This document shows, piece by piece, positions 708 through 6,588 of a DNA stretch of 6,588 nt. Both the position numbers and the translations under genes were made by a program. Below the pieces are notes generated by a model, which worked only from the letters and a program-made list of their open reading frames with translations, did no database searches and was not told the DNA's origin. The first letter of the stretch is position 1, and every line of letters starts with the position of its first letter. Source of the DNA: a virus; the IMG/VR virus record IMGVR_UViG_3300020030_000300, positions 1-6,588 of that record. One strand, 5' to 3'.

Positions 708-1016
708 TTAACGTTTGTCAATTACTTGATTTCGGTTTCGGTCAGAAAACGAAATATGAAAAAAATTATCATAAACGATAAATTGGTCAAAAGGTTTGAA
801 CTCGCGGAATTCATATACCTTTTCAAGCAAATTATTATACATAGCAGATGTAGGGGGATACGGCTTGAAGTCGATAGCTTCTCCTTTCAAATGCTGAGAA
901 TTGGGCACACCTCCGACTGTCTTGTTGTGTTCGGGAGTCCGAAAGGCAGACGTAATTGTGAAATGGCAATCTGACTGTAGCAAGAATGCCAAAAACTTCA
1001 TAAGATTCTCATTCAT
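708..1016 (-). CDS. Compact zinc D,D- or L,D-peptidase of the M15 family (Peptidase_M15_3 / VanY-like fold). It is a putative peptidoglycan hydrolase (endolysin).
   Basis: The 102-aa ORF contains FTITSAFRTPEHNKTVGGVPNSQHLKGEAIDF followed by FIVYDNFFHISFSDR. This matches the M15 signature (ITSGYR-x-P-x-HN-x-x-VGG-x-x-x-S-x-H-x-x-G-x-A-x-D ... H-[VI]) with H-x6-D plus a distal H as zinc ligands. No signal peptide is evident. Its stop lies 10 nt upstream of the VP4 ATG on the same strand. Confidence 0.85.
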   Translation of the reverse strand: MNENLMKFLAFLLQSDCHFTITSAFRTPEHNKTVGGVPNSQHLKGEAIDFKPYPPTSAMYNNLLEKVYEFREFKPFDQFIVYDNFFHISFSDRNRNQVIDKR

Positions 1017-1018
1017 GA

Positions 1019-1114
1019 CTAGGCAAGATTAGATAGTAATGATGTCAGTGCTGCCACAATAGCGGAAATTACCGCAGTAATCCAATTCGTTTTCTTGTTG
1101 TTTTCTGTACTCAT
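1019..1114 (-). CDS. 31-aa single-pass membrane mini-protein. It is a candidate holin-like or membrane-disrupting partner of the peptidase.
   Basis: This ORF is below the track's size cutoff. Hand translation gives ATG (1114-1112) MSTENNKKTNWITAVISAIVAALTSLLSNLA TAG (1021-1019). It has a polar, Lys-containing N-terminus followed by an uninterrupted hydrophobic stretch of about 20 residues. The stop lies 2 nt before the peptidase ATG (gcc tag tc atg), and this is the first ORF of the minus-strand block. Its size makes coding status uncertain. A competing 30-aa ORF in another frame (ATG at 1121, MPYEYRKQQENELDYCGNFRYCGSTDIITI) has no such features. Confidence 0.45.
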   Translation of the reverse strand: MSTENNKKTNWITAVISAIVAALTSLLSNLA

Positions 1115-1140: not shown

Positions 1141-1172
1141 CAAATGAAAGTGTTTTTTTTGATATATGCAAA
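1141..1172 (-). promoter_or_regulatory. Candidate Bacteroidetes-type promoter for the minus-strand gene block (imperfect -7 box)
   Basis: On the minus strand, TTTG (complement of 1169-1172) is followed by a 20-nt spacer and then TTcaTTTG (complement of 1141-1148). The Bacteroides consensus is -33 TTTG / -7 TAnnTTTG, so there is one mismatch in the TA. The box lies about 27 nt upstream of the 31-aa ORF start. No exact TAnnTTTG exists on this strand within the intergenic region. Confidence 0.25.
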
Positions 1173-1228
1173 GGAATCTACGGAAATTTTATTGTGTGAG
1201 TTGTCCGTACATAGACGAGGAAAGACCG

Positions 1229-1250
1229 TTTGCCATGCAGGGATGGCAAA
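1229..1250. other. Perfect 8-bp inverted repeat with a 6-nt spacer (hairpin I, or a protein-binding palindrome)
   Basis: TTTGCCAT (1229-1236), gcaggg, ATGGCAAA (1243-1250). Outer complementary segments ttgtccgta (1201-1209) and tacggagacaa (1255-1265, 2-nt bulge) could extend it to a structure of about 65 nt. Confidence 0.7.
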
Positions 1251-1311
1251 TCCTTACGGAGACAACTATGGGCTTCGCTTGATTAACACATGAATAGTTT
1301 TGTTGATGGCT

Positions 1312-1404: not shown

Positions 1405-1451
1405 GGGGAGAGATGAGAGGCTGAAGAAGATTCTACGTTCGAAACTTCGAT

Positions 1452-1482
1452 TTGTTAAAGTTTTGTTAATTCTGTGGTGGAA
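1452..1482. repeat. Imperfect direct repeat, copy 1 (31 bp, ends in TGTGGTGGAA)
   Basis: ttgttaaagttttgttaattcTGTGGTGGAA matches 1492-1522 at 24 of 31 positions at an exact 40-bp offset. The terminal 10-mer is identical. Confidence 0.7.
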
Positions 1483-1514
1483 TTTGCATGATTGTAAGAT
1501 TTTGGTTATATTTG
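1483..1514 (+). promoter_or_regulatory. Bacteroidetes-type promoter (-33 TTTG / -7 TAnnTTTG) driving the plus-strand cassette
   Basis: TTTG at 1483-1486, a 20-nt spacer, then TATATTTG at 1507-1514 (exact TAnnTTTG). It is the only exact -7 match I found on the plus strand in the 1115-1565 gap. It lies about 50 nt upstream of the ATG at 1566, with an A-rich leader lacking a Shine-Dalgarno site, as is typical for Bacteroidota. Confidence 0.55.
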
Positions 1515-1522
1515 TGGTGGAA
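1492..1522. repeat. Imperfect direct repeat, copy 2. It overlaps the -7 box of the plus-strand promoter.
   Basis: ttgtaagattttggttatattTGTGGTGGAA matches copy 1 at 24 of 31 positions. It contains TAtaTTTG at 1507-1514. Confidence 0.7.
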
Positions 1523-1565
1523 AAAGAAAGATAAACACCATTAATAACCAAAAACATTACAAATC

Positions 1566-1841
1566 ATGGAAAAGAACAAAACTTACGAAGTATGGAGAAT
1601 GTTGGCTGAAAAGCCGAGTATGAATGAATGTATCCATTCGGGAAGAATTCGTGACTGCAAAAAATACCTCAGAGCAGTGGAAAGCGCGTATAGAGACCTC
1701 GGGTGGAAACTGATAGTTACGGACAGAACTTTAATAGCTCTGCCTACGATAGATGCGGGAGTAGAGTACATTTACGTTATTACTGAAAATGTATCGGGCG
1801 ATGTGGAATTTAAAATGCAAGGAGGAAATGGACATGTATGA
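1566..1841 (+). CDS. Hypothetical small protein A (91 aa), encoded opposite to all canonical phage genes
   Basis: MEKNKTYEVWRMLAEKPSMNECIHSGRIRDCKKYLRAVESAYRDLGWKLIVTDRTLIALPTIDAGVEYIYVITENVSGDVEFKMQGGNGHV. The composition is balanced between charged and hydrophobic residues, and first codon positions show a strong purine bias (RNY-like). A promoter lies upstream. The competing minus-strand ORFs here have almost no acidic residues and look like antisense artefacts. I do not recognise a family. Confidence 0.7.
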   Translation: MEKNKTYEVWRMLAEKPSMNECIHSGRIRDCKKYLRAVESAYRDLGWKLIVTDRTLIALPTIDAGVEYIYVITENVSGDVEFKMQGGNGHV

Positions 1842-2037
1842 AATTATATATGTTATGAATAGTTTAGAGTTCAACATGGGTGGGTTCAGAAGAATCAGAG
1901 ATGCAAGAGATGTTTTGAAGATGGTCAGAAATGAATACATTCGTGAGGGACAGAGGACTCTACTAGTAGGGAAAGATTGTTTGCATATAGTATCCGAAAA
2001 AAATGGAAATCGGAAATATGTAATCAGAAAAGTGTAA
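1834..2037 (+). CDS. Hypothetical small protein B (67 aa from the ATG at 1834), a possible distant paralog of protein A
   Basis: MYEIIYVMNSLEFNMGGFRRIRDARDVLKMVRNEYIREGQRTLLVGKDCLHIVSEKNGNRKYVIRKV. The ATG at 1834 overlaps the stop of ORF A (ATGTATGA, 8-nt overlap) and lies 8 nt after AGGAGG (1820-1825). Alternative in-frame starts at 1828 and 1789 (the track ORF) would give longer overlaps. It shares RIRD and identically spaced L, V, Y and G residues with ORF A. Confidence 0.65.
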   Translation: MYEIIYVMNSLEFNMGGFRRIRDARDVLKMVRNEYIREGQRTLLVGKDCLHIVSEKNGNRKYVIRKV

Positions 2038-2042
2038 AGGGA

Positions 2043-2074
2043 AAGGCATGCTGTCCTCACGGATGGCAAGCCTT
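2043..2074. terminator. Stem-loop between the convergent plus-strand cassette and VP2, a candidate bidirectional terminator
   Basis: aaggcatgctgtcc (2043-2056), loop tcac, ggatggcaagcctt (2061-2074). That is 14 stem positions with one A/A mismatch and two G-T(U) pairs in the plus sense; in the minus sense those two become A-C mismatches. It starts 6 nt after the ORF B stop and ends 18 nt before the VP2 stop. There is no clean T-run, so rho-independent function is uncertain. Confidence 0.5.
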
Positions 2075-2092
2075 AGATGAGATTATATAAAC

Positions 2093-3214
2093 TTAATAGC
2101 TCACTGTAGAGTCATAGTATCTTCGACCATGACGGGACGGGGCGTTGAATGAGCCTTGACCGTCATAGGTTGAATAGCTTCGAGAACCTGAACGGTAGAT
2201 ACCGTAACCGCCTATGGCGTTGCCAATACCTGTCGAGAACTGATTAAATCTCTGCATTCGGGCATTGCGGTCGAAATTTTTCATTTCCTTTTCAGTAATG
2301 CGAGTTTTGAAATAGTCTCGCTCATACTTATTCTTATACAATTGATTGAAATTCAGAATGTCAGTACGGGCTTCCTTAGCTGACAGGGAATTTGTTGCAA
2401 TTGTCGAAGAAATGATTGCAGCAGCGGTTTTTTCTGCAATCTCGTTGCTTATATTCTGACCTTTCGCACGGGCGTAGATTTCGGCAGTTTGAGCAATTTC
2501 GCGTGAGGCTTGAGCTTCAGTCAATGCGCCTGTCTTCACCATGTTCACGAGATTCTGAGCCTTAATCGCTAGATTTGCCTGATTGTCAGCATCTATATAC
2601 TTGTTCATGATACCTTGCGCGTCAGCTTGCAAGTTGGTAAGTGTTTCTTGTGCCTGCATGAGCTTCTGTGCATATTGCAGATTAAGAAACTCCTGTTTTT
2701 CCTTGCTTTGGTCAAGTTCTGCCATTTGGTAACCTCTTGACTTATTCCAATAGCCTGATTGACCTATGGCAAAATTCTTGTAATCAACATTACCGCCAAG
2801 CGTATAAGGCAGCCATTCATTCGTAATTTCCTGACCTTTCGCGCCCGCAATTGCCTTGCGGGCGTTTGCAAGATTGGCGAATGCCTGAGTAATGTCCGAA
2901 GCACCTTGGGCAAGGTTTATAGCAGGCTCAACAGTCGGGCCTTGCGAACCTTGCGGGAGGTTAGAAGATTGCCCAATTCCTGAACCGCCATCAAGTGCAT
3001 TATATGGGTTGAAACCTGCCTCTTCCATTCGGGCGCGCCAATTAATAGGCTTATTATACTCGTTCTGCATATTCCACATTTCCAATTGGAAATCGCGGTT
3101 TTTCTTGGCCTCGTTTGCGCCAAACAGACCGCCAAGAAATGACGAGCCAACAGAAGCAATACCATTAACTAGAGCACCCGCAGCGGGTTTCGCGAGAAAA
3201 GCACCGAGTCCCAT
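2093..3214 (-). CDS. Minor capsid / DNA pilot protein VP2 (373 aa)
   Basis: The Gly/Ala-rich hydrophobic N-terminus (MGLGAFLAKPAAGALVNGIASVGSSFLGGLFG) is followed by EMWNMQNEYNKPINWRARMEEAGFNPYNAL. That resembles the conserved N-x-P-x-x-Q/W-x-x-R-x-x-x-AG-[LF]-NP motif I recall from gokusho/alpavirus VP2. A long Q/A/N-rich helical middle follows. It sits immediately after VP3-like with a TAATG stop/start overlap at 3212-3216. Confidence 0.85.
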   Translation of the reverse strand: MGLGAFLAKPAAGALVNGIASVGSSFLGGLFGANEAKKNRDFQLEMWNMQNEYNKPINWRARMEEAGFNPYNALDGGSGIGQSSNLPQGSQGPTVEPAINLAQGASDITQAFANLANARKAIAGAKGQEITNEWLPYTLGGNVDYKNFAIGQSGYWNKSRGYQMAELDQSKEKQEFLNLQYAQKLMQAQETLTNLQADAQGIMNKYIDADNQANLAIKAQNLVNMVKTGALTEAQASREIAQTAEIYARAKGQNISNEIAEKTAAAIISSTIATNSLSAKEARTDILNFNQLYKNKYERDYFKTRITEKEMKNFDRNARMQRFNQFSTGIGNAIGGYGIYRSGSRSYSTYDGQGSFNAPSRHGRRYYDSTVSY

Positions 3215-3690
3215 TATTGAGCAGGAGCAGAAGCGGGCGCAGAGGCTTCTGATTGTTGTTGCTCAGATTCCTGAACAGCCTGTTCATACTGTTGCATAAG
3301 GTCTGCATGTTCATCGCGCAACCAATCCATAACTGCCTGACGTTCTGACATTGTTTGGCAATGACGGGAAATTACCATGTCGAAGCGTTGGTTATCTGTC
3401 AAGCTGTCTTGAATAGTTGATTGGGTTGGGTGCATGCTTGCTAAAAGTTCCTGATATAGGGGGTCTCCGAGTTTTTTACGAGTTTTCTCCTGATGAAGCA
3501 GGAAATAAGTCATGTCGAACTTGCGGAATGCGCCTGACGGGGTTTCTTCAAATGCAATTTGGTCATATGGAGACAGTTGACGCATAGGTTGTGGCTCACT
3601 AGTAACCGCAGTAATATCAGGTACTTCTGATGTCATGTTGTTGAATTTCTCGAATTGTTCGGGGGTTATTCCAAAAAAGCGTTTATTCAT
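3214..3690 (-). CDS. VP3-like protein (158 aa), a putative internal scaffolding protein
   Basis: The ORF sits between VP1 (11-nt gap) and VP2 (1-nt overlap), which is the expected position and size for a microvirus scaffold. It has an acidic, Q/E-rich C-terminal tail (QQYEQAVQESEQQQSEASAPASAPAQ). Function is assigned by synteny and size only, with no diagnostic motif recognised. Confidence 0.7.
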   Translation of the reverse strand: MNKRFFGITPEQFEKFNNMTSEVPDITAVTSEPQPMRQLSPYDQIAFEETPSGAFRKFDMTYFLLHQEKTRKKLGDPLYQELLASMHPTQSTIQDSLTDNQRFDMVISRHCQTMSERQAVMDWLRDEHADLMQQYEQAVQESEQQQSEASAPASAPAQ

Positions 3691-3701
3691 AATTTCTTAT
3701 A

Positions 3702-5489
3702 TTAATACGGTAAACCATCGCGTGAAAGGTTACGAGCTACCTTAATATTAAACTGAGCATTACACAATAACTGGTCTGTATCCACCTTTTCATCAGCCTG
3801 AACGTCAAAAATCGGGTCTAATTGAGAGGGACGAACCTTAAATGACAGGTAATTAAATGCACCTTGGCCACGTTGAGCGGTTAAGATATTCATCCAATTA
3901 ATTGGGGCGACCCAATTCTTAAGAGTTGTCTGAAATGCGCCCGAAATACGGTCAATTCGCGTCTTAAAATCAGGATAGCGCAATGAATAGCCAACAAAAT
4001 AGTCGGACAAATCATTTTCGCCAAGAGCGACAGCAGATGCCGTAAGAGCCGTTAGAGGGACACTTTCTAAACCAAGAGAATCAAATGCAGGTTGCGGGAA
4101 GTCAGAAACAGCAATACGCTGTAATTGAGGGTCTGCACCATCAATGTTATAATCTACCAATGGCACAGCATGGTATATACACATAATGATACAATGTTCA
4201 GCACCTACAGTGTAACGAATTTTTCTAGAACGTCCTGAGCCAACGCCTTTACCTGCAATATTTGCTTGAGAGCCCTCAGTGTCAAGATTTGTATTTACAA
4301 CCTCAGAGATATCTATATTTCCATCGAAACCGCCAATATAATGAGCATGATTACCCATTGAATCATCACCACGGATGCCAAATTGGGCTTTCATTTGGTC
4401 GTTATAATCCTTAGATGAGAATTGTACTACTTCTTTCCAGCGTTGAAGATACTCAGCAGCACGTACAGCAAGAAATGAGATATTACTCTGCAATGATGGG
4501 TTCATTGCATATATAAAGGCATTTTGCGAAACCTGATTATCCACAGTTTCATTATTATGGAAATTCAACTTAGGGTCAAGTAGATTTCCCTGAGGTGAAA
4601 TCGTATCAGAAGATTGTGAATATAATTGAATAGAATTATAAGAGTTTGGGAATGTTTTACTAGTTTGGTATATAGGGTATTTTGTATCATCAGAATACTG
4701 TATCGAAGCAACATCTCCATACTGAGAACTTGGAAGAACACCCATGAAATAATCTTTATTATAGTTCGCATAACGAAGCTTAATCATTTCCTTGTCCAAA
4801 TTAGTATCAAACGCCTGAACTTGCAACATATAATCAGTATTATAAGCATAAGCAAGGTGACGTTCCCATTGAGAATTTGAATAGAAATCAAAATAGATTT
4901 TCTGATAAGCACACAAAGGGAGAACTGAAAGAAATTGGTCAGTTTTTCGAGACTTAAACGCAGTCGGATTTGTAGTAAACCATGAAGTCATACTAGATTC
5001 AGATACATTAGAATCAATGGCACCATAATTCAAGTAATTCAAAAGTTTCTGAGAAGTAGCACGAATAGGGAAACCCGCATCGTCCAAATCAGTGGACTTC
5101 AAATAGTTCGTAAATGTATCCTCTAGAATATCCTGAGAAACATTCGGAACGTCTTCCATTAAATAGGAATTCTGTGATTTATTAATAGCAGAAACAGCAT
5201 AATCTTTCATCTGCGCAAACGCAGTAGGTAGATTACGATTAAGCAGACGCAAGGGTACAGCATAGAAATCATAATACTCACGGATACGAGTGTAAGCAGA
5301 AGTGTTAACAGGACGGGTACGAGTAAACCAATCTTCGGAAATTTCGAAGACGTCATCCGGCATTCCATACTGCCACATCACAGGCAAAAGTTCACCGACC
5401 TTGGCGGTAAACATCTTTTTTTCGGACATGTCGAAACCTGAACGATGAATTGGAATCGACTTCCGGACGAGAGGATTAAAATCTGACAT
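3702..5489 (-). CDS. Major capsid protein VP1 (Microviridae F/VP1 family). It is 595 aa from the ATG at 5489; the maximal ORF starts at 5531 (609 aa).
   Basis: MSDFNPLVRKSIPIHRSGFDMSEKKMFTAKVGELLPVMWQYGMPDDVFEISEDWFTRTRPV...YYDFYAVPLRLL carries the conserved N-terminal capsid pattern (H-R-S-x-F-D-[LM]-S ... G-x-L-x-P ... P-x-D-x-F ... [FY]-x-V-P-x-R-L). The size is typical of Alpavirinae-like VP1 proteins with large insertion loops. I prefer the start at 5489 because homologous N-termini begin about there and it avoids a 32-nt overlap with the VP4 3' end. Confidence 0.93.
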   Translation of the reverse strand: MSDFNPLVRKSIPIHRSGFDMSEKKMFTAKVGELLPVMWQYGMPDDVFEISEDWFTRTRPVNTSAYTRIREYYDFYAVPLRLLNRNLPTAFAQMKDYAVSAINKSQNSYLMEDVPNVSQDILEDTFTNYLKSTDLDDAGFPIRATSQKLLNYLNYGAIDSNVSESSMTSWFTTNPTAFKSRKTDQFLSVLPLCAYQKIYFDFYSNSQWERHLAYAYNTDYMLQVQAFDTNLDKEMIKLRYANYNKDYFMGVLPSSQYGDVASIQYSDDTKYPIYQTSKTFPNSYNSIQLYSQSSDTISPQGNLLDPKLNFHNNETVDNQVSQNAFIYAMNPSLQSNISFLAVRAAEYLQRWKEVVQFSSKDYNDQMKAQFGIRGDDSMGNHAHYIGGFDGNIDISEVVNTNLDTEGSQANIAGKGVGSGRSRKIRYTVGAEHCIIMCIYHAVPLVDYNIDGADPQLQRIAVSDFPQPAFDSLGLESVPLTALTASAVALGENDLSDYFVGYSLRYPDFKTRIDRISGAFQTTLKNWVAPINWMNILTAQRGQGAFNYLSFKVRPSQLDPIFDVQADEKVDTDQLLCNAQFNIKVARNLSRDGLPY

Positions 5490-5499
5490 AGAAATAAAT

Positions 5500-6588
5500 T
5501 TATATGTTAATAAATGCGCCGTTGGCATCATTTAATCGCTTGTGTTTTACAAGCCGACGAGCTTTCACGGCATTATTATTCTTTAATAATCTTTCCAAAT
5601 AGGCATCTTTATAAATGTCTTGCAAATTCAAACCGATATCTTTCGGTAAGAATAAGCTATAATGATTATAGTCTGCATATTCATCCGAAACGGATTCGGC
5701 AAGGGAATATTTTTCTTGAAGAAGTCGCAGCTCACGGGTATCAAGAGCAGCGAAACAACGAGTGTATATTTTCTTTATCTCATGGAATGAGGGGTTATCG
5801 GGTAATTTCCAAAACCGTAGGAATTTGGATACGGTAAGGAATAGCCGATATATACAGCCTAGAGCAATCTCAGGGTTCAAGATTCTACCACCGACATGGA
5901 AACCATTCGGAGAAATCATACGACATTGATTTAGAATAGCATAGTCTTCGTAAATTAAACTATTTTTTGAAGCTATACATTCTAGATATGCACGAGAAAT
6001 CGCAAGAACGGAAACACCTATTTGTTCGGGTTTTCTCTTCTTGGGGAAGAGTTTAAGCCGTTGGCACGCTGTTGCCACAGCTCGAACAAGGAAAGATATT
6101 TCATTAACATCAGTTCTTCGAAGTCCATTGAATTGGGGACATACGGTATTGAGATACGAGCGGGAGGCATTAACGCTAATATGTTTAGAGTTGACGATAA
6201 GGCTTCGTCCATCACAGAGGTAAGAGGCAACCCGCGCAATCTCTTCGTCTGAAGACGAAGCAGGTTCCTGTGCTTCCATATCGAAACGCAACGAAGCGCG
6301 GCTTTTGGGTCGCATAATTTTCGACTGGCGATAAAAGACGGGAAGCATACTATTGGCACTAATATATGACGCAACGTACGATGAAGCGCCTCCTGTGGCA
6401 AGTTGTATATCTGAACGACCGAAAGTCCAACTCTTAGCGTGAGCCTGTCTAACTGTTTCGGAGAATTCTTGCGTGTTTCCGAATAATAGGAGATGGAAAT
6501 GCGGGCGGAAATGGACAGGTCCGTATTCACCCGCAGCGTAGAAATGTATCTTTTCATTGCAACCGAGTCTATTTAAGTTTATACGTAA
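5500..6588 (-). CDS. Replication initiator VP4, 3' part. Bases 6468-6588 duplicate 1-121, and the full gene is 1,665 nt (554 aa plus stop).
   Basis: The frame matches 1-697 once base 1 is joined to 6467 (697 + 968 = 1665, divisible by 3). The listed 282-aa ORF (5500-6348) is only the C-terminal part. The frame stays open upstream to 6588: ...QEFSETVRQAHAKSWTFGRSDIQLATGGASSYVASYISANSMLPVFY... SYVASY contains a Y-x3-Y pair like the catalytic tyrosines of RCR motif III in phiX174 protein A. The stop TAA is at 5502-5500. Confidence 0.9.
   Translation of the reverse strand, partial: LRINLNRLGCNEKIHFYAAGEYGPVHFRPHFHLLLFGNTQEFSETVRQAHAKSWTFGRSDIQLATGGASSYVASYISANSMLPVFYRQSKIMRPKSRASLRFDMEAQEPASSSDEEIARVASYLCDGRSLIVNSKHISVNASRSYLNTVCPQFNGLRRTDVNEISFLVRAVATACQRLKLFPKKRKPEQIGVSVLAISRAYLECIASKNSLIYEDYAILNQCRMISPNGFHVGGRILNPEIALGCIYRLFLTVSKFLRFWKLPDNPSFHEIKKIYTRCFAALDTRELRLLQEKYSLAESVSDEYADYNHYSLFLPKDIGLNLQDIYKDAYLERLLKNNNAVKARRLVKHKRLNDANGAFINI
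6468..6588. repeat. Terminal direct repeat, copy 2 (duplicate of 1-121)
   Basis: Identical 121-mer to 1-121, so this is redundant sequence rather than additional genome. Confidence 0.95.

Follow-up and report, generated by a model that had tools for sequence, protein, structure and literature searches.

The stretch of DNA analysed here (the window, 6588 nt) is a complete circular microvirus genome of 6467 nt together with 121 nt of assembly overlap, the latter closing the window end as a direct repeat. All the canonical genes are encoded by the minus strand, and two further ORFs, designated A and B, are read in the opposite direction (Table 1). The host is probably a member of the Bacteroidales. 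The initial annotation had described a minus-strand canonical set with gaps of 11 nt or less, and this layout is retained. The measured gaps are 2 nt between the 31-aa ORF and the peptidase, 10 nt between the peptidase and VP4, and 11 nt between VP1 and the VP3-like gene, with overlaps of 1 nt (VP3-like/VP2) and 32 nt (VP4/VP1). VP4 as it was given there has to be redrawn, however. The terminal repeat shows that it is a 554-aa protein crossing the window ends, of which the ORF at 5500–6348 is the C-terminal part only.

Table 1. Features of the microvirus genome in and around the antisense cassette (window coordinates)
Feature	Position	Strand	Remarks
M15 peptidase	708–1016	-	Canonical gene
31-aa membrane ORF	1019–1114	-	Canonical gene
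Candidate main-operon promoter, TTTG-N20-TTCATTTG	1141–1172	-	Upstream of 31-aa ORF, peptidase and VP4
Nested hairpins of backbone intergenic region	1195–1290		Conservation 89–91%
Upstream element, two TGTTAA(A) repeats	1449–1471	+	Left copy of 31-nt direct repeat
Bacteroidota-type cassette promoter, -33 TTTG / 20 nt / -7 TATATTTG then T	1483–1514	+	Conserved in clade
Small hairpin GTGGTG-N16-CACCAT	1514–1541	+	At predicted transcription start
A-rich 5′ leader of ORF A	1520–1565	+	99–100% conserved
ORF A, 91 aa	1566–1841	+	30 homologues, 60–94% identity
Shine–Dalgarno-like AAGGAGG	1819–1825	+	8 nt upstream of ORF B ATG
ORF B, 67 aa, pI 9.9	1834–2037 (ATG 1834, stop 2037)	+	Family of 30 proteins
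Hairpin between convergent ends of ORF B (+) and VP2 (-)	2043–2074		Present in all relatives
VP2	2093–3214	-	Canonical gene
VP3-like	3214–3690	-	Canonical gene
VP1	3702–5531	-	Canonical gene
VP4 (Rep), 554 aa	Starts 697, wraps circle to 5500	-	Crosses the window-end repeat

The opposing pair is present as first described, including the 8-nt ATGTATGA overlap. In most relatives ORF A encodes 84 aa. In the window the usual TAA stop has become CAA, adding seven residues and creating the overlap with B. The sequence AAGGAGGAA is also found ahead of B in the B1-type relatives L006 and L007 and in the B2-type relatives, and is not found in the B3-type genomes.

The candidate main-operon promoter is the sole minus-strand match in the genome to the relaxed motif TTTG-N18-22-T[AT]NNTTTG, and matches occur in the same place in six of the eight relatives examined. 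From its sequence it would act as the promoter of the main operon. In the nested hairpins of the intergenic region the inner stem pairs TTTGCCAT with ATGGCAAA (1229–1250) and the outer stem pairs GTTGTCCGTA with TACGGAGACAAC. The inner stem has compensatory variants (AT/AT, GC/GC and GT/AC) among the relatives, and the ssDNA fold of 1180–1570 has z = -5.7. A homologous element is found in Dulem virus 226, which has no cassette, and these hairpins are probably an origin-type element that lies outside the cassette proper. A search of Rfam revealed no known RNA within 1000–2150. A 9-mer shared with the origin region of phiX174 (ATTAATAAC) is not conserved in the second lineage described below, and is probably there by chance. 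A 66-aa minus-strand ORF at 1357–1557 was set aside as a gene; the invariant promoter region overlaps it, in L001 its C-terminal portion is entirely different, and the gene tables of 15 relatives do not call it.

The antisense genes and their products

Are A and B genuine genes? The plus frames are open throughout 22 related genomes or contigs, comprising 17 from independent samples (the window and 16 loci) and five more contigs, and both genes are called by automatic gene callers. Among 13 unique sequences the plus frame of ORF A contains no stops and each of the five other frames contains between 30 and 99; its variable sites number 32, 28 and 63 by codon position, and dN/dS is 0.16. The B family consists of three allelic types that are 32–44% identical to each other, and despite this divergence the length is held at 67–68 aa in 16 of 17 genomes. 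Within types dN/dS for ORF B is ∼0.1 (range 0.06–0.19, with 0.19 for the window against L006). The plus-frame selection that the initial annotation had proposed to look for in relatives, as a dN/dS below 1, is thus found for both genes. Its dismissal of the minus-strand alternatives also stands, since the longest run without a stop in these frames varies between 34 and 113 aa, and stops occur in all relatives.

The Microviridae are the textbook case of unidirectional genomes, and the field has assumed that backwards genes never occur. Unidirectional coding is treated as a rule of the family, and reverse ORFs have been removed on purpose (PMC9239249). By that working rule, and with a 112-aa minus-strand ORF present in the window, A and B might be taken for chance or assembly artefacts in a region that is either non-coding or encodes the minus-strand ORFs 1731–2069 and 1583–1771. 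The comparative data refute this, and we give it a negligible probability. In every relative the plus frames alone stay open and under constraint, the layout is common to more than 20 independent assemblies, and a fold is predicted for B with high confidence. Judged by these comparisons, A and B are real protein genes under purifying selection in the plus frame. Across a whole clade of human-gut microviruses, comparative genomics thus shows an antisense transcription unit that is conserved and under selection, and current annotation practice discards real genes.

The two products had been proposed to be diverged paralogues on the basis of a short alignment, and at the profile level this relationship is secure and in the same register. 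Alignment of the two profiles by hhalign gave a probability of 90.2% (E = 1.5e-6), and a broader A profile raised this to 94.2% (E = 1.2e-7). The score of the real alignment was 36.6, compared with 11.0 ± 2.6 (maximum 20.6) for shuffled controls, and none of 200 column shuffles reached it. The profile-level alignment spans only A7–52 against B2–45. The B profile also cross-matches the A-like proteins of the second lineage, with E from 1e-6 to 2e-9. The resemblance of A to B suggests that B arose by duplication of A. Distant homologues of A share the motif NKxYxVxR...GRIRDCK, and the invariant residues are N4, K5, Y7, V9, R11, G26, R27, R29, D30 and K32. Protein A (∼84 aa) is near-neutral with a pI of 5.4–6.7, and B (∼68 aa) is strongly basic, with a pI of 9.8–9.9 in all types.

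The AF2 model of B is good (pLDDT 90.8, pTM 0.74), with the fold β-β-α-β-β-β. That of A is poor (pLDDT 49), with secondary-structure elements unlike those of B; the fold of A would follow from the paralogy with B only, and a Foldseek search with the low-confidence A model was meaningless. Comparison of B with the PDB using Foldseek gave no match with E below 0.05, and TM scores were at or below 0.45. Searching BFVD with B returned many small uncharacterized phage proteins, with TM up to 0.85. Those of the Rhodococcus phages Weasels2 and Trina, and the mycobacteriophage ‘Gp84-like domain’ proteins, match B in predicted fold and size (TM 0.75–0.85 over 67–77 columns, E down to 2e-5), and they too are present as several paralogues per phage genome. 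Yet the identity of these tailed-phage proteins to B is only 8–22%, with no relationship at the level of sequence, and as they are themselves of no known function the fold match yields no mechanism.

The initial annotation recognized no known family, and broader searching bears this out. Pfam, PHROGs, NCBIfam, PADLOC and PDB sequence searches with A, B, their variants and the homologues from the second lineage gave nothing meaningful, and no real match among GenBank phages was obtained by tblastn with A or with an A-like protein of the second lineage. The A profile, used in an exhaustive HMM search, returned 13 matches, of which two (P0063 and P0070) were discarded as low-complexity repeat proteins. 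A and B belong to a new, microvirus-specific family of small proteins, in which A is the conserved member and B the hypervariable basic one.

Promoter, leader and downstream hairpin

An exact promoter had been noted ahead of the cassette, and it withstands further analysis. The motif TTTG-N20-TATATTTG has no other full match on either strand and is conserved in the relatives; 0.25 matches per genome would be expected by chance, and at least one match occurred in 42 of 200 shuffles. The consensus of the -7 element is TANNTTTGY (PMC12632263). The cassette promoter, 52 nt upstream of the start of ORF A, agrees with the Bacteroidota primary-sigma consensus at 1483–1515 (-33 TTTG, -7 TANNTTTGY, N20). 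The spacer in promoters of this class is ∼19–21 nt. Transcription would start near 1520. The segment 1446–1581 is 95–100% conserved, above any coding region.

The direct repeats of 31 nt at 1452–1482 and 1492–1522 are 77% identical, and GTGTTAAA repeats are also found upstream of the homologous promoter of the second lineage. When 19 sequences drawn from both lineages were folded with RNAalifold, the small hairpin at the predicted transcription start was the one helix retained. Its outermost pair varies in 3 of the 19 sequences and a GC pair in one, and as it is near-invariant with no compensatory change it provides no evidence from covariation. The leader has no Shine–Dalgarno sequence. Together with the promoter it makes up an inverted repeat peculiar to the clade (1483–1572), of which it forms the right arm; the paired segments are 1483–1493/1562–1572 and 1500–1509/1544–1553. 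On the minus strand this folds with -14.6 kcal/mol (z = -4.2), a stability equalled in 0 of 300 shuffles. One compensatory pair, 1498/1555, changes from G-C to A-T in L013–L015. The outer stem is not conserved in the second lineage.

The hairpin that follows the cassette is real, conserved and covarying, with several compensatory changes among the relatives. It had been taken for the terminator of the cassette, but it is not specific to it, because it is kept in the B-less genome L002 and lies between convergent units. No T-run follows it on the plus strand, a scan for consensus terminators gave zero terminator-like sites, and the minus strand past the hairpin is only moderately T-rich. We infer that it is a two-way terminator. 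Given the lack of a plus-strand T-run and its survival without B, it may serve the backbone instead, as the main-operon terminator or as a structure in ssDNA.

It is very likely that 1449–2074 forms an independent plus-strand transcription unit with two tandem paralogues, the other seven genes being on the minus strand. This degree of confidence applies to what is demonstrated and to the reading as a transcription unit, and excludes our guess at the function. In the scheme that we propose the incoming ssDNA would first be converted into the double-stranded replicative form. Host RNA polymerase with the Bacteroidota primary sigma factor would then start at the consensus -33/-7 promoter (1483–1514), and A and B would be transcribed away from the main operon. 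The weaker promoter of the main operon (1172→1141) would fire the opposite way ∼310 nt off, and both convergent transcripts would end at the common hairpin 2043–2074. Being on the other strand would make A and B independent of read-through in the circular structural/lysis operon.

Ambisense circular ssDNA genomes are well known among eukaryotic viruses, in the Geminiviridae, Circoviridae and other CRESS-DNA viruses. Like the window, these have a circular ssDNA genome and a rolling-circle Rep, with genes on both strands transcribed divergently from an intergenic region containing the origin hairpins. They differ in their eukaryotic hosts and in an unrelated capsid and genome plan, and the antisense part of the window is a 0.5-kb accessory unit only.

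Variability and a homologous module in a second lineage

Where did the cassette come from? The closest nucleotide match in GenBank, Dulem virus 226, has the same gene order but is 469 nt shorter and has no cassette, and no hidden antisense ORFs were found in the equivalent gap of Dulem viruses 226 and 255. By this comparison the cassette is an addition to a Dulem-226-like backbone. ORF B is deleted in L002. Relative to the proteins of the window, identity is 76–97% for the core, 60–95% for A and 32–64% for B. Similarly, dN is 0.01–0.16 for core genes, up to 0.31 for A, and ∼0.5–0.66 between types of B; dS is saturated between the B types, so that positive selection cannot be separated from old divergence and recombination. 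Alleles of the two genes are reshuffled. In L001, A shares 95% identity with the A of the window but B is nearly identical to that of L003, while the A of L003 itself is only 64% identical to that of the window. The locus thus combines divergence above that of the core with presence/absence variation, the mark of a hypervariable accessory region in microviruses. The initial annotation had called the cassette an acquired accessory module. Its accessory nature is upheld by its absence from Dulem virus 226 and the deletion of B in L002, but acquisition from outside the microviruses is not.

A homologous module is found in a second lineage of gut microviruses (L017/L018, L021 and L064–L074; lineage 2), which is not represented among GenBank phages. 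Homology extends over promoter, leader and hairpin (TTTG...TTAT.TTTGTGGTG...AACACCA...CAAAAA..TTACA), and the lineage-2 A-like proteins match the A profile with E from 1e-28 to 1e-37. Twelve lineage-2 genomes were examined for the A-like gene (L017, L021, L064–L070 and L072–L074), and each has a single copy, adjoining the promoter. B is confined to the window clade. A 73-aa ORF in L018 was considered as a possible homologue of B, with weak support (hhalign probabilities of 3% and 25%), and was rejected. The lineage-2 backbone is different from that of the window, with a Rep of 326–334 aa compared with 554 aa and no M15 peptidase. The homology of promoter, leader and A gene places the origin of the cassette within the microviruses, and shows that microviruses can swap promoter-plus-gene modules between lineages.

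The orientation of the module differs between the lineages. It is opposite to VP1 in every contig of the window clade and co-oriented with it in every lineage-2 contig, where it follows Rep on the same strand as VP1, VP2, Rep and all other genes, and heads the co-oriented set. Its polarity with respect to the T-rich strand is the same in both lineages, that is antisense. At four-fold degenerate sites the sense strand is T-rich in every reference microvirus compared (T = 0.63 in phiX174, 0.50 in Chp2, 0.65 in SpV4 and 0.58 in Dulem virus 226), and T is 0.47 in the canonical genes of the window. The A and B genes of the window clade are the mirror image of this, with an A content of 0.40–0.69 at these sites, and lineage 2 is A-rich (0.56–0.72) in all its genes. 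A mirror-image bias inside the same genomes means that the bias tracks the physical strand, and not the sense of the gene or the codon preference of the host.

The cassette could, as one tentative reading of these compositions, have become antisense without any inversion, coming from a microvirus lineage that encodes its whole gene set on the complement of the packaged T-rich strand. In phiX174 T-richness is a mark of the packaged strand; should the same hold here, the microviruses of lineage 2 would be ‘negative-sense’ and those of the window clade truly ambisense. The window clade could have arisen through copy-choice recombination, with strand polarity preserved, between microviruses of each kind. 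The strand composition makes testable the old assumption that the packaged strand is always coding-sense.

On the reading of a negative-sense donor, the module might double as an entry site for RNA polymerase on the incoming strand. The packaged strand, T-rich as assumed, is the template strand for A and B. A hairpin in that strand might present the -33 and -7 elements as a duplex, from which host RNA polymerase would start on ssDNA to make a primer for the complementary strand, an immediate-early transcript of A and B, or both. Precedents exist in the Frpo/ssi sequences of the F plasmid and ori(-) of M13, single-strand promoters or RNAP-primed minus-strand origins in which promoter elements are set in a hairpin of the entering strand and that strand is the template; by analogy, the promoter elements of the cassette would lie inside a predicted hairpin of the entering, template strand. 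The minus-strand folding of the promoter–leader inverted repeat, the G1498-C1555 to A-T change, a conservation of the leader far beyond the needs of a promoter and the antisense polarity of the module in both lineages are all consistent with such an early or priming module. We nevertheless think it unlikely. Unlike those of Frpo and M13, the hairpin is a predicted one, weakly supported by covariation. Its long stem is not conserved in lineage 2, where RNAalifold retains only the invariant inner 6-bp helix, and two variants of the clade, C1487T and A1491G, leave G-T wobble pairs in a plus-strand fold yet produce C-A mismatches in the minus-strand one. Dulem virus 226, moreover, replicates without a cassette on the backbone hairpins alone, so that the module is not required as an origin.

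A predicted antisense gene in a microvirus has one earlier mention. Roux et al. (2012; PMC3394797) described a complementary-strand ORF in Human_gut_33_003 as ‘highly unusual’, and this was the only case known to them. Like the window, Human_gut_33_003 is a human-gut microvirus with an M15 peptidase in which a gene is predicted opposite VP1. Compared with the cassette by description only, it is a single ORF of 153 codons in one genome, for which the paper mentions no conservation, test of selection, promoter or homologues (PMC3394797). In contrast, the cassette of the window clade has two paralogues of 84–91 and 67–68 aa that are conserved in over 20 genomes, their dN/dS being well below 1, its own promoter, and homologues in a second lineage.

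Possible roles of A and B

What might the cassette do? The evolutionary pattern weakly suggests, and we put forward as a tentative guess, that A and B are soluble accessory proteins acting at a conflict interface, in phage–phage exclusion, anti-defence or host takeover. This is based on the much faster evolution of A and B compared with the core, the three reshuffled types of B, and the fact that B can be lost. The occurrence of the A-like gene next to the promoter in all of the lineage-2 genomes examined fits a core role in the life cycle at least as well.

In that case A would be a core protein borrowed from lineage 2, for example a functional analogue of phiX174 C or gokushovirus VP5 in DNA synthesis and packaging, and B a redundant, drifting duplicate. 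The strongly conserved motif of A, its single-copy gene beside the lineage-2 promoter and the dispensability of B agree with this, as does the size of A (∼84 aa), close to that of phiX174 C (86 aa). We regard a core role as doubtful, however. A window-type backbone works without A in Dulem virus 226, A evolves several-fold faster than the core within the clade (dN up to 0.31 against 0.01–0.16), and B is under clear purifying selection within types and so is not drifting. Nor was any sequence or profile similarity found between A and a known microvirus protein.

The initial annotation had likened the divergent layout to a genetic switch encoding a regulator or immunity function. This found no positive support, and A and B are probably not a repressor switch. 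As a lysogeny or immunity switch, either A or B would bind the repeats at 1452–1522 as a repressor and control the divergent lytic operon, in the manner of cI and Cro. Several features recall such an arrangement. The two promoters are back to back ∼310 nt apart, direct repeats of 31 nt, which end in TGTGGTGGAA, bracket the -33 and -7 elements, B is a basic protein (pI 9.9), and its allelic types are reminiscent of immunity types. Moreover, related gut microviruses of the Alpavirinae are known as prophages (PMC3091885). The proteins themselves do not match this role, with no HTH or RHH domain, no match in Pfam, PHROG or NCBIfam, and a confidently predicted β-β-α-β-β-β fold for B. Neither between the three B types nor between A proteins of 60–95% identity do the putative operators vary; B is therefore not an immunity repressor acting on the repeats, as these remain invariant while B exists as three very divergent alleles. 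A scan of 185,579 representative genomes (one per species; peptide-pattern seeding) revealed no prophage copy; its single match was spurious, lying inside a cellular gene of a high-GC MAG. The promoter and A of lineage 2 head an entire co-oriented gene set, which is not the layout of a switch. Finally, phiHBP1, which may or may not belong to the window clade, is the only cultured Bacteroides microvirus reported and did not lysogenize (PMC13064476). This phage infects B. fragilis, and its genome of 6319 nt (GenBank PV598014) encodes an M15 peptidase. Taken together, we hold the switch to be quite improbable.

Still less probable, in our estimation, is a pair of the toxin–antitoxin or effector–inhibitor kind, in which an acidic A would neutralize a basic B. 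Two small genes that are adjacent or overlapping, with translational coupling in the window genome, would suit such a pair, as would the difference in pI between A (5.4–6.7) and B (9.8–9.9) in all types and the far greater variability of one partner. But lineage 2 and L002 have A without B, the free reshuffling of A and B alleles argues against tight co-adaptation, and partners that are paralogues would be atypical. PADLOC, Pfam and NCBIfam gave no matches to either protein.

We return to the conflict interface, for which the A/B family is a candidate player, in conflict between phages or between phage and host in the Bacteroidales. A parallel may be drawn with the defensive hypervariable regions of gokushovirus prophages that Kirchberger et al. 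reportedly described in 2021 (PNAS), with a role said to be superinfection exclusion. The hypervariable genes of that study are said to be co-oriented with the rest of the genome and to belong to prophages of Enterobacteria; the cassette differs in being antisense, with no prophage found and a host that is probably of the Bacteroidales. In both, microvirus genomes that are otherwise similar differ at a small, fast-evolving and non-essential accessory locus, the alleles of which are very divergent or not homologous.

Two genes antisense to the canonical genes

The ends of the window carry an exact 121-nt direct repeat (1-121 and 6468-6588), and thus the genome is circular, of 6467 nt, the repeat being an assembly overlap. 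The initial annotation correctly placed VP4, the replication initiator (Rep), on the minus strand, but the VP4-like ORF at 5500-6348 is only the C-terminal part of the full protein. The genome is closest in GenBank to faecal microviruses of the Dulem, bajarodmic and Parabacteroides groups, whose VP1 is <50% identical to its own, and the match at the DNA level is limited to a short Rep segment of Dulem virus 226. A paper of 2025 describes phiHBP1 as the first Bacteroides microvirus to be cultured; it is lytic, lies near the Dulem group and encodes an M15 peptidase in a genome of 6319 nt (PMC13064476). The 31-aa peptide encoded directly upstream of the peptidase (MSTENNKKTNWITAVISAIVAALTSLLSNLA) is conserved, has one hydrophobic helix and is among the called genes of most relatives. 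It may be a holin-like lysis partner.

Positions of features in the window
Feature	Position	Strand	Remarks
M15 peptidase	708-1016	-	Pfam E 2.8e-13
Membrane peptide, 31 aa	1019-1114	-	encoded ORF
Second promoter match	1172->1141	-	relaxed -7 box; upstream of 31-aa ORF, peptidase, VP4 operon
Direct repeat, 31-nt	1452-1482 / 1492-1522
Cassette promoter	1483-1514	+	Bacteroidota-type, TTTG-N20-TATATTTG then T; sole exact match on either strand
ORF A	1566-1841	+	overlaps ORF B by ATGTATGA
ORF B	1834-2037	+	overlaps ORF A by ATGTATGA
Hairpin 3' of B	2043-2074
Pilot protein VP2	2093-3214	-	encoded ORF
VP3-like protein	3214-3690	-	encoded ORF
Major capsid protein VP1	3702-5531	-	PHROG 514, E 7e-55
Replication initiator VP4, 554 aa	from 697, wrapping round to 5500	-	spans window ends

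ORFs A and B form a cassette that reads the other way. Database searches gave 30 proteins of the B family and, for A, 30 homologues at 60-94% identity, most of them of 84 aa; all are on contigs of ~6.3-6.6 kb. We compared 16 related contigs, mostly complete circles. In every one A is opposite in strand to VP1, VP2, VP4 and the peptidase, and is flanked by the intergenic region on the peptidase side and by the end of VP2; a B of 67-68 aa comes next in all but one. Over 13 distinct sequences the plus frame of A has no stops and a mean dN/dS of 0.16, and the five other frames have 30-99 stops. B falls into three allelic types: B1 (the window and contig L006), B2 (L001 and L003-5) and B3 (L008-16). 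Identity between types is 32-44%, yet all three preserve the length, the start and a shared motif, and dN/dS within types is 0.06-0.19. The minus-strand ORFs of the region, of 34 to 113 aa, are broken in all relatives. Since the plus frames are open and under selection, chance ORFs and minus-strand genes are both refuted, and the comparison of frames proposed in the initial annotation bears out its claim of genuine antisense genes.

At 1817-1841 of the window, CAA replaces the TAA at which A usually stops, so that A gains seven residues and the overlap with B is created. In L002, the contig that lacks B, the gene has been deleted between short AAAGT repeats (L002 5252-5330), leaving its first four codons. 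Two database proteins, P0058 and P0060, are chimeric; one joins the VP2 N-terminus to the B C-terminus, and the other runs from the B N-terminus into unrelated sequence. These are probably misassemblies or rearranged variants in short contigs.

How unusual is this arrangement? Roux et al. (2012) described one 153-codon ORF on the complementary strand of a gut microvirus, which they termed 'highly unusual' in its orientation, knowing of no other case (PMC3394797). Kirchberger et al. (2022) stated that all genes of microviruses face one direction, and dropped reverse-oriented calls from analyses on the scale of 13,000 genomes (PMC9239249). The cassette contradicts this working assumption of the field. 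It occupies the same kind of locus as the accessory and hypervariable loci of microviruses, but differs in being antisense, promoter-bearing and of an undescribed family.

Promoter and conserved hairpins

The cassette has its own promoter, as the initial annotation proposed, and the flanking repeats and the hairpin beyond B are likewise present as it described. The consensus for the -7 box is TANNTTTGY (PMC12632263). When this box is relaxed by one position there are exactly two matches in the whole genome, and the second is found in the same place in six of eight relatives examined. The 136 nt from upstream of the promoter into ORF A (1446-1581) are 95-100% identical, in genomes whose proteins differ by 5-40%. 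Pairing in the hairpin 3' of B is maintained through several double changes (e.g. AAGGCATGC.../...GCAAGCCTT in the window versus GAGGTGTAC.../...GTACACCTC in L001, and in others), and it is kept in L002 despite the loss of B. A scan using an E. coli-type model found no intrinsic terminator. The simplest reading is of two divergent transcription units that would meet head-on at this hairpin, with both start site and termination predicted.

Further hairpins (1195-1290, 1312-1337 and 1366-1380) lie between the two promoter matches. They are strongly conserved, with compensatory substitutions such as TTTGCCAT/ATGGCAAA versus TTTGCCGC/GCGGCAAA versus TTTGCCGT/ACGGCAAA, and the outer element is common to Dulem virus 226, which has no cassette. 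They may be origin or priming structures. Five relatives (L002, L013-L016) carry an extra GC-rich segment of ~120 nt at 1289/1290, absent from the window and the remaining relatives. A 9-mer, ATTAATAAC, occurs once in the window (1540-1548, plus), on the A-rich strand within the invariant leader of A, and at 4308-4316 of phiX174, where it flanks the viral-strand origin nick at 4306. Its conservation does not extend to the second lineage described below, and with 0.15 occurrences expected per genome the match is probably due to chance.

Paralogy and origin of the cassette

Profile-profile comparison of A with B gives a probability of 90% (E 1.5e-6), rising to 94% (E 1.2e-7) with a broader A profile, where A7-52 aligns with B2-45. 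The real alignment scores 36.6, above all of 200 column shuffles of the B alignment (11.0 ± 2.6, maximum 20.6), in the register of the paralogy suggested initially. A is near-neutral (pI 5.4-6.7) and B basic (pI 9.8-9.9 in all three types). The AlphaFold2 model of B (pLDDT 90.8) is beta-beta-alpha-beta-beta-beta; that of A is poor (pLDDT 49), with elements strand-helix-helix-strand-strand-strand. The B model has no significant structural neighbour in the PDB, but tailed phages, actinobacteriophages among them, have numerous small uncharacterised proteins that resemble it (TM up to 0.85). For A, B and their variants there is no match in Pfam, PHROG, NCBIfam, PADLOC or PDB sequences, in agreement with the first assessment, and the family is previously undescribed.

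In Dulem virus 226 the genes follow the order of the window and the conserved backbone hairpin (GTGTGAGTTGT...ACAACTAGGGGCTTCGCTT) is shared, but the genome is 469 nt shorter and lacks A, B and the cassette promoter. Thus the cassette is an addition to the backbone, and its accessory status is further seen in the deletion of B in L002. The original observation is confirmed, and the structural inferences drawn from it (antisense genes, own promoter, paralogy, accessory status) were largely right.

When 1.84 billion proteins were searched exhaustively with the A profile, distant homologues of 73-83 aa (motif NKxYxVxR...GRIRDCK) came to light in a second group of gut microviruses, lineage 2. Their genomes of 5.7-6.3 kb encode a pilot protein, a capsid protein (PHROG 514, E 3e-47) and a Rep of 334 aa (PHROG 942, E 7e-37). 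Here all genes share one strand, the A-like gene included; it comes directly after the sole intergenic region, which itself follows Rep. Some 100 nt upstream of A are homologous in DNA between this lineage and the window clade (the window and its relatives), sharing TGTTAAA repeats, the -33 TTTG, TTAT.TTTGTGGTG, AACACCA, CAAAAA and TTACA. Promoter, leader and A therefore travel as one module. DNA-pattern scans of viral and metagenome collections added 24 informative contigs, five of the window clade and 19 of lineage 2, and recovered the L001 contig again as L071. In the former the module is always opposite VP1 or opposite the only long ORFs of the contig; in the latter it is co-oriented, two short contigs being identified by the lineage-2 first ORF instead. 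By these sequence comparisons, the window clade carries the module reversed relative to its backbone. All 12 lineage-2 genomes examined have one A-like gene and none a separate B. B is confined to the window clade and similar to A, which suggests that it arose there by duplication of A.

Lineage 2 also has a 73-aa ORF just before VP1 (MNSKKLFRVVKIKNNDEDKYVIVCGKSRACE...; L018 1033-1254, L021 747-968), which weakly matches the A profile over its N-terminal half (hhalign probability 25%, E 8e-4) and may represent a third paralogue, a very distant one. Another protein of this lineage, of 67-68 aa, has a hydrophobic segment followed by a lipobox-like LQAC or LNAC (L018 827-1030, L021 538-744) and may be a lipoprotein lysis factor. 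In Dulem virus 255 (L103) a sense-strand 50-aa ORF right after VP2 (3403-3555, MKYELRIKVGRKVVFSRVGTLESCNSWIKTWEE...) takes the position of the antisense cassette, and its opening strand-strand-helix pattern looks similar by eye.

Evolution, candidate functions and strand polarity

Identity to the window is 76-97% for core proteins, 60-95% for A and 32-64% for B where present. Core genes have dN of 0.01-0.16 and A up to 0.31; between B types it reaches 0.5-0.66, with synonymous sites saturated. In L001 the A is window-like (95%), but the B almost matches the B of L003, a contig whose A is only 64% identical to that of the window, and thus the alleles have been reshuffled. The promoter and flanking repeats are unchanged across B types, which argues against B as an immunity repressor acting there, and no prophage copy was found in 185,579 species, each covered by one representative genome. 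The genetic switch read from the divergent layout is not supported, and a lysogeny switch is very improbable. The rapid change and reshuffling of A and B, with the invariant repeats and the negative prophage search, favour either of two other readings. A and B may be an accessory pair at some conflict interface, which we propose tentatively, or a borrowed life-cycle factor with its specialised duplicate; a core life-cycle role for A seems the less likely of the two, and unlikely overall.

T predominates at four-fold degenerate sites of the sense strand in phiX174 (0.63), Chp2 (0.50), SpV4 (0.65), Dulem virus 226 (0.58) and VP1/VP2 of the window (0.47). A and B of the window clade are the mirror image, with A contents of 0.40 and 0.69 and C lowest. 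The bias thus goes with the physical strand; an effect of host codon preference or of transcription polarity would be alike for all genes of one genome. In lineage 2 (L017, L018, L021, L064-L074 except L071, and L078-L096) all genes are A-rich at these sites (A 0.56-0.72, T 0.08-0.20; whole genome A 0.42, T 0.21). The module is therefore antisense to the T-rich strand in both lineages. An inverted repeat specific to the window clade (1483-1572) pairs promoter with leader (one compensatory pair; z = -4.2), and would put the -33 and -7 boxes into duplex on the entering strand. Since lineage 2 has not conserved this repeat, the idea of a single-strand promoter is speculative. T-richness marks the packaged strand in phiX174. 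If it does so here, lineage 2 may be encoded antisense to its virion strand, and polarity-preserving recombination, which involves no inversion, could have given rise to the window clade.
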